Shown one piece after another: positions 8,766 to 11,207 of a stretch of 11,551 bases of DNA. Each line of letters begins with the position of its first letter. The stretch's first letter is position 1. The stretch is taken from assembly GCA_043813875.1 (NCBI GenBank), contig JBDRKP010000011.1, positions 1 to 11,551 on the forward strand, read 5' to 3'. The position numbers and the translations under genes were made by a program. Source of the stretch: an archaeon. Lineage in GTDB: Archaea; EX4484-52; B79-G9. The notes below the pieces were generated by a model. That model saw only the letters and a program-made list of their open reading frames with translations. It searched no databases and had not been told where the DNA came from.

Positions 8766-9913
8766 ATGGCAATTGACATACAGGACGGAACTCTCGATAG
8801 AGTCTATAATGACATAAGACAGGTATTGGAAAAAGCCCGGGATAATGCCTGCAGGGCAATTAATTTTGCAATGGTGACCGCATATTGGGAAATAGGCAGG
8901 ATAATTGTTGAAGAAGAACAGAAAGGAGAAAAGAGAGCAGAATACGGAAAAGCGATACTCCGAAGTTTGTCCTGTAAACTATCGAAAGAATACGGCAAAG
9001 GATTTGACGACTCAAACCTCAGAAACATGAGGCAGTTTTATCTGACATTCCAAAATTGTGACGCACTGCGTAACGAATTGTCATGGACGCATTACAGGAT
9101 GTTGCTGCGCATCGAAAAAGAAGAAGCAAGACAGTTTTATCTGCATGAGTCTATAGCCAATAATTGGAGCACACGCCAGCTTGAAAGACAGATAAACTCT
9201 CTCTTGTATGAACGTATCGCCTAAAGCAAAGACAAGGAAAAAGTAAAAGAATTGTCATATGGTCAAATCATCAAAGCACCAGAAGACATTATTAAAGATC
9301 CTTATGTTCTTGAATTTCTGGGATTGAAAGACAACACAGGATTACATGAAAGCGACATGGAACAATTGTTGATTGACAAGTTGCAGGCATTTCTACTCGA
9401 ACTTGGGAAAGGGTTTTCCCTCGCATCAAGGCAAAAAAGAATAACAATTGACACAGACCATTATTATGTTGATCTGGTCTTCTACAATTATAGTTGACGT
9501 CGTTAATGGCTGGACAAATATGACCAATAAACCAACAGACGTCAATCTATATGGAAAAGCCATAGTCTAAAAAGTTATGGCTTTTACTATATATTTTGAA
9601 GTGTTTCATTCTTATTGACCTGAAACTGGGAAAACTCACGCATAAGGACATCGGTCAGATGGACTTTTATGTTCGTTATTTCGAGAAAGAAGAAAAGCAG
9701 GAAAAAGACAATCCTACAATAGGTTTGATACTCTGCTCAGACAAAAACGAGTCAATCGTAAAATACACCCTTCTCAATGAAAGCAGGACAATATTTGCAT
9801 CACGATATAAACTCTATCTGCCGACAGAGGAAGAACTCAAAAAAGAGATTACACGAGAGCGGACATTAATAGAACATGAAAAGAAACTTGAAATGCAAAA
9901 GATTCCGCAATAA
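8766..9913 (+). pseudogene. YhcG/DUF1016 PD-(D/E)XK nuclease-family pseudogene (nonsense codon 9222-9224; 101-bp insertion 9493-9593)
   Basis: Family motifs are spread over three fragments: YWEIGR.IVEEEQ.G..RAEYG, LSWTHY, WS.RQLERQI, IKDPYVLEFL, FLLELGKGF, DLVFYN|ILKCF.LIDLK, GQMDFYV, NPTIGLILC, FASRYKLYLP. Reading through the TAA and removing 101 bp restores one 348-aa frame. Confidence 0.9.
9489..9593. mobile_element. 101-bp double-hairpin insertion flanked by TATA direct repeats
   Basis: Removing 9493-9593 gives AAT TAT ATT TTG AAG TGT (NYILKC), the family consensus. Two imperfect hairpins lie at 9489-9551 and 9550-9591. Confidence 0.8.
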
Positions 9914-10036
9914 TAGAAAGATATTTGGCAACAACTGTCTCTCGTGCACATCATCAAGATTTGTAACATTTGACATGATTCAAGTAACAATTATAGATTA
10001 TGATTGCTGATCAACAAAAGATTGATTAGAGGTCTC

Positions 10037-11050: not shown

Positions 11051-11207
11051 TATACTCAAGGCATGAAATAAATGAGCAAACTTCAACAAAAACCAATATG
11101 CATTGAGTATTCGAGCAAATCTTTGATTTGCTGAATCCTAAAAATCACGTGTGATTTTTAAGGATATGGAAAGGCACACAACTCAAATTATTAGTGCCTT
11201 TACTATA
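11051..11207. repeat. Four consecutive inverted repeats, TATA-bounded; related to the 9489-9593 insertion
   Basis: Hairpins at 11052-11110, 11114-11132, 11135-11165 and 11165-11207. The last has the same TATGG...A-CTATA frame as 9550-9591. Confidence 0.7.

Follow-up and report, generated by a model that had tools for sequence, protein, structure and literature searches.

A TA-flanked miniature element with hairpin ends interrupts yhcG in a DPANN-type archaeon and probably depends on an IS630-family transposase

Introduction

Several described kinds of short repeat resemble the subject of this report, a 101-bp insertion in the gene yhcG of an archaeal genome. The insertion lies in an 11,551-nucleotide stretch of contig JBDRKP010000011.1 (assembly GCA_043813875.1), the whole of which we call the window, and it belongs to a family of hairpin-ended repeats that are probably TA-flanked miniature transposable elements with inverted repeats (MITEs) dependent on insertion sequences (IS) of the IS630 family. 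The closest bacterial counterparts are the Correia elements of Neisseria (CREE/NEMIS), non-coding inverted repeats of ~70-157 bp that start TATAG[CT]GGATTAA... (PMC2649163). They often lie at TA, mostly in intergenic DNA and sometimes in genes that they disrupt, and the enzyme that mobilises them is not established in the sections of PMC2649163 available to us. For IS630-family elements the target is TA, which is duplicated on insertion, according to the accessible part of PMC2170065, and MITEEc1_IS630 is an example of an IS630-derived MITE named in PMC11602168. The same census gives high MITE densities for DPANN genomes, and in the portion consulted the families are not described; archaeal IS were surveyed in 2026 (PMC13343696, seen in part). 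A further relevant group is the GTAG repetitive extragenic palindromes (REPs). As presented in the available sections of PMC3733652, these are tagged palindromes with complementary stem variants, G.T pairs, inverted pairs and clusters, present in tens to hundreds of copies, and they are linked with RAYT genes that have REPs on their flanks, and described for bacterial phyla.

The family studied here is like the Correia elements in kind and shares with them the five terminal bases TATAG, insertion at TA and small size. It differs in that the 26-bp Correia repeat given in the consulted part of PMC2649163 has no counterpart here beyond TATAG, and in that the Correia host is bacterial. The ends differ as well: those of CREE, as described there, are long and conserved in sequence, whereas here they are drifting foldbacks accompanied by variable hairpin modules. 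With REPs, REPINs and BIME-like mosaics the family shares a tag joined to a palindrome, complementary stem changes and inverted pairs (PMC3733652). Relative to what that source describes in the sections seen, the tag here is TATAG and not GTAG, no gene for a tyrosine HUH (Y1) transposase flanked by units was found, and the gene interruption is cleanly bounded by TA. The family is a familiar kind of selfish DNA; it is itself undescribed, and it is unusually rich in hairpins. Full-text literature searches returned no description of it, the supplementary MITE lists of PMC11602168 being outside their reach. Its unusual trait is that the end hairpins evolve by compensatory change, the sole feature that the standard model leaves unexplained. 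The locus is a case of gene inactivation by a MITE caught in the act in a small-genome, DPANN-type archaeon, with the filled and empty alleles both public, and it indicates that reduced archaeal genomes still carry active, diversifying tiny transposons.

Results

A precise and recent insertion in yhcG

The yhcG gene of the window and its insert comprise the following features (positions in the window).

8766..9913, forward strand: yhcG pseudogene (DUF1016_N plus YhcG_C, a PDDEXK nuclease), in the pieces 8766-9224, 9252-9490 and 9592-9913, identified with Pfam
9222..9224, forward strand: second yhcG lesion, a TAA stop where orthologues have Leu
9489..9490, no strand: putative left copy of the duplicated target TA; empty sites in two related genomes (G002 and G005) and the joint in a public run (X2) have one TA fewer
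9491..9589, forward strand: element proper, 99 bp, TAG...CTA, no open reading frame (ORF); likeness to other copies stops at these ends
9590..9591, no strand: putative right copy of the duplicated target TA; 99 + 2 = 101 bp, the length absent from the empty alleles
9494..9545, forward strand: hairpin unit A, with an 8-bp stem and a 36-nt loop with conserved GGACAAA ... AACCAA, recognised by its fold and by compensatory changes
9550..9591, forward strand: hairpin unit B, an inverted, short-loop form of unit A, recognised by compensatory changes and by its match to the unit A model

Pfam finds DUF1016_N in 8766-9224 and splits YhcG_C between 9252-9497 (profile positions 2-68) and 9596-9913 (profile positions 70-156), so that exactly one profile position, a split Ile codon, falls at the break. 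The original prediction held that removing a precise 101-bp insert restores yhcG, and both this one-codon break and the empty alleles bear it out. Searching the genomes of the family with yhcG as query, we found the 101 bp absent in two of the same genus, G005 and G002, where the two halves of the gene are contiguous. Their intact orthologues (361 aa in G005 and 376 aa in G002) both read FYNYILKCF, and the empty site is ...TTCTAYAAT-TAYATTTTGAAG..., with CAAT-TAYA-TTTTG at the site itself. These two sister species fix the intact state of yhcG as ancestral. An RNA-ligase gene stands upstream of yhcG in both, as it does here, and in G005 the rhomboid gene downstream is present as well.

We also compared contigs of four public sequencing runs with positions 8900-10000 of the window. 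Run X2 yields a 437-nt contig with 10 differing letters (~98% identical) that joins 9488 to 9590, skipping the 101 bp and passing from TA to TA; four letters at the joint fit either side. The same X2 strain has T at 9223 and hence TTA (Leu) in place of the TAA stop, so that yhcG carries two lesions here and neither in this closely related strain. Runs X3 and X4, one of which may be the source sample, have contigs with the filled allele at 0 differences, and the insertion is therefore not an assembly chimera. An uninterrupted allele at this position, which the original prediction had proposed to look for, is present in G002, G005 and the X2 contig. The insertion in yhcG is real, precise and recent.

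Two hairpin units in inverted orientation

Positions 9489-9591 read TATAG-hairpin A-CTATA/TATGG-hairpin B-ACTATA, and TATA occurs at 9489-9492, 9548-9551 and 9590-9593. The stem of hairpin A is formed by 9494-9501 (TTGACGTC) and 9538-9545 (GACGTCAA) and is followed by an unpaired T at 9546 and by CTATA at 9547-9551. Hairpin B begins with TATGG (9550-9554), has an 11-nt stem (9555-9565 paired with 9575-9585) around a 9-nt loop, and ends with CTATA (9587-9591), before which one base, A at 9586, is unpaired. In the TATA at both junctions and between the hairpins, and in the geometry of both hairpins, the sequence is as originally reported. The accompanying claim that the two stems are unrelated does not hold, since a covariance model of hairpin A matches hairpin B on the opposite strand from end to end (11 matches among 80 loci, each 44 nt long and scoring 26-32 bits) and the outer ends of the element, when aligned, are imperfect inverted repeats. 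From these two observations the element emerges as an ordinary element with terminal inverted repeats (TIRs), each TIR having an internal inverted partner. Its left end reads TATAGTTGAC... and its right end ...TTTTACTATA.

A 126-nt stretch folds as DNA at -20.1 kcal/mol (z -5.7) and as RNA at -33.8 kcal/mol (z -5.1), and in neither case does any of 200 shuffled sequences equal it. Rfam covariance models, run on the window and on six loci bearing copies (29,950 bases), gave only chance-level matches (E 0.39 and 0.45).

A dispersed family with exact ends

The source genome (G000) comprises 1.64 Mb in 90 contigs, with 43.8% G+C and an estimated completeness of 91.5%. A BLAST search of it with 105 bases of the insert returned 51 matches; the counts from iterated nhmmer are 45 for A units and 37 for B units. 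Of the A units, 35 form an A..B element with a B unit, 100-460 bp long. Behind most of the 10 remaining A units stands a B end whose stem has diverged; a few are truncated. None of the 45 A units is solitary, since each runs on into a B-type end or is cut short, and only 2 of the 37 B matches are orphans. The further copies that the original prediction called for are therefore plentiful. Its view of the insert as a non-autonomous mobile unit is upheld by these many copies, by the empty alleles and by the lack of a transposase in the window.

The copies have sharply defined ends. When 17 copies are aligned together with flanking DNA, likeness runs exactly from TATAG to ACTATA and the flanks are unrelated. 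All copies start with TATAGT and end with ACTATA, and the left tag TATAG, with TA before TAG, is present in 45/45. Two copies (on contigs C20 and C38) are 100% identical across 105 nt. Longer copies contain extra hairpin modules between A and B: all 7 matches to one internal module (C) lie inside A..B frames, as do 12 matches to another (D), whose other 12 matches are 6 loci counted twice, on both strands, in frames of a sister subfamily described below. Many copies also carry a nested insert of a second repeat family in the A-run of the hairpin B loop, and this second family has the layout T-run, hairpin, A-run, GCTTG, hairpin, CATGA. The family is small, non-coding and dispersed, and it has terminal inverted repeats and empty sites, as a MITE has; the TA can be read as a duplication or as part of the element.

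Insertion at TA, mostly in spacers

Over 37 reconstructed sites the target context is A19 A25 Y27 / TA / W29 W34 T22, and the focal site in yhcG is AAT/TA/TAT. The largest duplication that fits all copies is TA, with an element TAG...CTA, and the sequence also fits 0 or 1 duplicated base. Judged from the sequences of these sites, duplication of TA would be the mechanism. Most copies are intergenic and solitary. When the element and one TA are taken out, a long frame reappears in 2 of the 35 copies tested, namely in yhcG and in a gene on contig C38. The latter becomes a 450-aa frame whose halves carry SLFN_AlbA_2 and HATPase_c_4 + HTH_24; a DNA-level search of the genus gave no orthologue of it, and the case is based on the restored frame and the domain order.

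Copies may also meet one another. On contig C53 two elements abut with one TA in common, and on C42 an element sits in the apparent loop of an older unit. With crude gene calls (greedy ORFs >=80 aa; 5 copies skipped), the genes on either side both point away from the element in 15/40 copies and both point towards it in 4/40, which indicates that the elements favour promoter-side spacers. The same ORF-based look at 40 copies revealed no strong bias in the orientation of the copies themselves.

An IS630-family transposase as candidate enzyme

No transposase is encoded among the proteins of the window by Pfam, in keeping with the original statement that it holds no cognate enzyme. In G005, of the same genus, we find an IS encoding a 346-aa DDE_3 transposase (contig C139; locus L104, 928-2047) whose left and right ends, read inward, are TATAGCAATCCAATGAAGT and TATAGCAAACCAAGAAAGT and whose flanks are GAAT/TA..TA/ATTC. 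These ends recur in a genome of another family (G018, locus L226) and in 4/5 metagenome loci, with both ends at L229, L230 and L231 (56-81% identical) and the sole end present at L233; another homologue, 41% identical, has other ends. As an observation in its own right, a clade of the IS630 family with TATAGCA...TGCTATA ends occurs in two families of the phylum and in metagenomes.

The link to the insert in yhcG is through the sister MITE subfamily of the same genome. Its ends are TATAGTCAATCCAATAAC and TATAGTGAATCCAACAAC (also written TATAGTCAATCCAAT.. / TATAGTGAATCCAAC..), and it has the same two-unit build, a TATATGG middle junction and like inner modules. Its ends match the TIR of the G005 IS at 18/23 positions with one gap, as counted on the alignment, and its B end matches the focal B end at 21/28 positions; the focal ends have only TATAG in common with the G005 IS. 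Taken together, the IS ends, the likeness through the sister subfamily and the TA duplication of IS630 elements single out, as the best candidate, a transposase from the TAG-ended clade of the IS630 family.

We therefore favour, with rather more confidence than doubt, the explanation that the 101 bp is a recent MITE insertion whose mobilisation in trans was the work of an IS630-family transposase. The insertion, its precision and recency, the copy number, the ends, the target context and the stem covariation are observed; TA duplication as the mechanism and the identity of the enzyme are the conjectural parts. On this proposal, the 99-bp element (TAG...CTA) would have entered AAT/TA/TAT in yhcG together with one duplicated TA, disabling the gene. 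Its imperfect TIRs consist of TATAGT and ~20 nt, each with an internal inverted partner that makes a foldback hairpin at each end. Extra hairpin modules can occur between the end units, and the second small repeat family enters the A-run of the B loop. Encoding nothing, the element has to be mobilised in trans, and the candidate enzyme is a DDE transposase of the IS630/Tc1-mariner family from the clade whose own ends are TA/TAGCA...TGCTA/TA. Its cuts would fall at the TAG/CTA termini, which would then be joined to a TA opened with a stagger.

The TA target and its duplication are like those of IS630/Tc1-mariner MITEs and of ISY100, as far as the consulted part of PMC2170065 describes them, and the context here is AT-rich and roughly palindromic. 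The focal family differs from IS630-derived MITEs in that the match to an IS of the same genus is found in the termini of its sister subfamily and not, beyond TATAG, in its own. It differs also in its modular double-hairpin build, which was not found described in those parts of the literature that were searched. The proposal points to a directly testable clade of candidate transposases, those of the IS630 family with TA/TAG ends. If an enzyme-end pair were established here, it could guide the question of the enzyme that mobilises Correia elements, which have the same TATAG/TA signature in PMC2649163 as far as seen.

Evidence for and against the proposed mobilisation

A number of results weigh against an IS630-dependent origin, and some of them concern the distribution of the enzyme. 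The TATAGCA-ended transposase was not found in a search of the source genome (best tblastn E 0.69), which is 91.5% complete, and it occurs in 3/42 genomes as compared with 17/42 for the repeat. DDE_3 genes of any kind are present in 3/16 repeat carriers, and none was found in G001-G004, which have 22-43 model matches each. An IS with the focal subfamily's own TATAGTTGAC ends was seen nowhere in the searched loci. The source genome does have an IS630-family IS, in at least 4 identical copies, and its ends are different (TA/GTACC...GTCAC/TA, with CTAG at 4/4 right ends seen). The negatives among these are weakened by the fact that the metagenome-assembled genomes (MAGs) are incomplete and that multi-copy IS rarely assemble. 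Internal modules, moreover, are placed between the end units without visible duplication.

The remaining points on this side come from the stems. Across the 41 distinct A units of the source genome, 93.8% of stem cells in the alignment pair; sliding the partner columns gives 26-41%. The same units show 42 double-change cells over 4 stem pairs, compared with 12.1 +/- 3.8 in shuffles (0/500 reach the observed value). A further 65 distinct rows from other genomes, in an alignment fitted to the model that takes in 11 short B-unit matches and a few weak matches, give 54 double-change cells over 5 pairs against 16.4 +/- 3.1. In 17 distinct full copies with both hairpins, 96.1% of cells pair, there are 35 double-change cells against 8.4 +/- 3.0, and 8 pairs are compensatory (reached by 3/500 shuffles). 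Hairpin B has 4 pairs with compensatory changes, transversion-type swaps among them. In all these alignments the rows are related by descent, and the shuffle controls overstate their independence. Stem A, read on the top strand, has more G.T than A.C, at 7:1 in the source genome and 18:8 elsewhere, counts that come from related rows and carry no formal test. In the outer stem of hairpin B a G.T pair is present in 16/17 distinct copies. We take the G.T counts as a hint of folding as a single strand, short of proof. Neither they nor the compensatory stem changes are predicted by a model in which TIRs are read as double strands. Sequence is conserved at both termini (TATAGT/ACTATA) and in parts of the loops. 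The original notion of a unit recognised by structure rather than sequence is not supported, real as the compensatory changes are.

If a Y1 enzyme moved the element as a single strand read by structure, in the manner of REP/REPIN-RAYT systems or derivatives of IS200/IS605, it would read the TATAG tag and the foldback and insert TAG...CTATA 3' of TA without duplication. We consider this unlikely. In its favour, duplication of TA and insertion after TA of an element that ends in TA look alike in the sequence; the stems drift while compensatory changes keep their pairing; and the top strand of stem A favours G.T over A.C, as the outer stem of B keeps its G.T pair. GTAG REPs, too, have a tag at the foot of the hairpin, inverted pairs of units and G.T pairs in the portion of PMC3733652 consulted, and the source genome has a Y1_Tnp fragment on contig C84 (3171-3335, minus strand), where an IS200-type Y1 transposase is cut off by the end of the contig and its C-terminal half is seen. 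Against it, in IS200/IS605 elements the left and right hairpins are on the same strand, unlike the end units here, which are mutually inverted, and only TA is fixed in the left flank, as against the 4-5-nt word tested for derivatives of IS200/IS605. No units adjoin the Y1 genes we looked at. The A model scanned beside transposase genes found nothing real (12 loci, 39,234 bases, 1 match at E 0.51), a loose unit detector gave 6 noise matches only (24 loci, 68,997 bases), and the Y1 loci of G000, G003, G005, G022, G027, G039 and G040 have no adjoining hairpin units. Y1 genes occur in 8/41 relatives and in only 4/16 repeat carriers. Over the 41 relatives, the repeat is associated with neither DDE_3 (3/16 carriers) nor Y1 (4/16), a weak result given incomplete MAGs. 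The TAG-ended, TA-flanked IS630 clade is the simpler source of the ends. A broader version, in which foldbacks and not sequence are read, either by an archaeal REPIN-like system or by a new single-strand system for which TATAG and any stable hairpin make a competent end, seems to us likewise improbable. It would explain the compensatory drift with its one-strand excess of G.T, the modules added without target duplication, and the dozens of copies without a matching DDE transposase.

The remaining readings divide the insert differently or remove it from the DNA level. Each hairpin could be a separate tiny mobile palindrome and the 101 bp the product of two independent insertions at adjacent TATA, as might be expected from the TATAG/TATGG and CTATA that bound each unit, from elements that enter or adjoin one another at TA (the C53 tandem, the flanks of C42 and C26) and from the second family in the B loop of many copies. 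The absence of solo A or B units, the orphan B count of 2/37 and the confinement of modules C and D to frames make this rather remote, and whole A+B copies are nearly identical, which argues that the pair moves as one unit. The original prediction likened the insert to two empty cassettes with an attC-like crossover, and an integron-like system would accordingly use attC-type folded sites, a tyrosine recombinase and a TATA crossover. Both attC and this family have folded sites that contain unpaired bases and conserve structure better than sequence, and the genome has three tyrosine recombinase genes. In contrast to integrons, R and L boxes, a GTTRRRY core, an adjoining integrase and cassette arrays are absent here; the copies stand singly, for the most part between genes, and have inverted-repeat ends with an IS630-like TA-flanked terminus, none of the three recombinase genes adjoins a copy, and neither circular forms joined at TATA nor an array-linked recombinase was seen. 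We regard this reading as very improbable. The neighbouring recombinase or Y1/HUH TnpA that had been proposed as a check was not found beside the units. We give almost no credence to an RNA-level element (an intron or processed insert) that leaves yhcG working, or to an assembly artefact. The insert does fold well as RNA, but the empty and filled forms are both DNA, the X3 and X4 contigs match the filled form with 0 differences, yhcG also has a stop codon, no Rfam model matches, and most copies are intergenic.

Other mobile elements of the source genome

The IS630-family IS of the source genome is found on contig C62 at ~11789-12993 (locus L032, 872-2076), with further copies at the ends of C82, C46 and C47, where they break the assembly. 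Its gene is in two parts joined at an A-run and looks like a case of programmed frameshift. The genome has in addition two DDE_Tnp_1 IS and one rve-like IS, whose ends are unrelated to the focal element. TnpB (PF07282) has no match in the genome; the same holds for mariner (PF01359), an uninformative result since the control genomes are without a match too. As for an autonomous copy in the source genome, outward-facing units 0.5-4 kb apart enclose housekeeping genes only (Lon_C, Nre, AAA_14/DUF4143, FBPase, aldolase, archaeosine TGT and an AI-2E transporter). Of the mobile sources that the original prediction considered, the IS630-type TA element fits best.

Distribution across genomes

The A covariance model finds units in 17/42 genomes of the phylum, in three families, and BLAST finds the element in 16/41 relatives. 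All 7/7 other genomes of the genus carry the A unit, with 7-68 matches each. An exact-pattern scan of species-representative genomes returned 87 stretches, nearly all of them in MAGs labelled Candidatus Nanohalarchaeota. Under other labels there are 4 in one Methanosarcinales MAG and one each in Altiarchaeota, Makaraimicrobium and Bacteroidota. Two of the stretches appear chance-like. The match labelled Bacteroidota is real (75 bits, on a 2.9-kb contig). Viral contigs scanned with the A-unit pattern gave 0 matches. The markers of the source genome (Nre, an archaeosine TGT with a PUA domain, and a four-subunit POR) fit a DPANN archaeon.

Full-scoring A units are also seen on contigs binned outside DPANN, at L128, L148, L166 and L175 (the Methanosarcinales MAG) and at L144 (the Bacteroidota MAG). 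These units may be mis-binned DNA of episymbionts; transfer between partners is the less likely origin.

Further repeats in the window and the genome

Short repeats of all families together occupy 27,136 bp of the source genome in 198 regions. A generic detector of TATAG plus a stem is unspecific here, with 210 matches against 170 in the reversed genome, and we used only its multi-member stem groups, as leads. The second repeat family, which nests in the B loop, has up to ~50 overlapping self-matches genome-wide. Two tandem copies of it stand at 2468-2624 of the window (T-run, hairpin CATTGT..ACAATG, A-run, GCTTG, hairpin, CATGA and T-run). Another repeat of ~130-150 bp, ending ..GGCAGACCC, breaks the assembly at the starts of C43, C57, C75, C83, C73 and C74.

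The window contains one more element, of the sister subfamily.

11051..11207, forward strand: second element, TATAC-hairpin, two inner hairpin modules and TATGG-hairpin-ACTATA

This element lies ~75 nt upstream of the rhomboid gene. In G005 a different copy, in opposite orientation, occupies the same spacer upstream of the rhomboid gene. As this example illustrates, copies are not at conserved places between genomes, and the two rhomboid-spacer copies suggest repeated insertions into promoter-side spacers.

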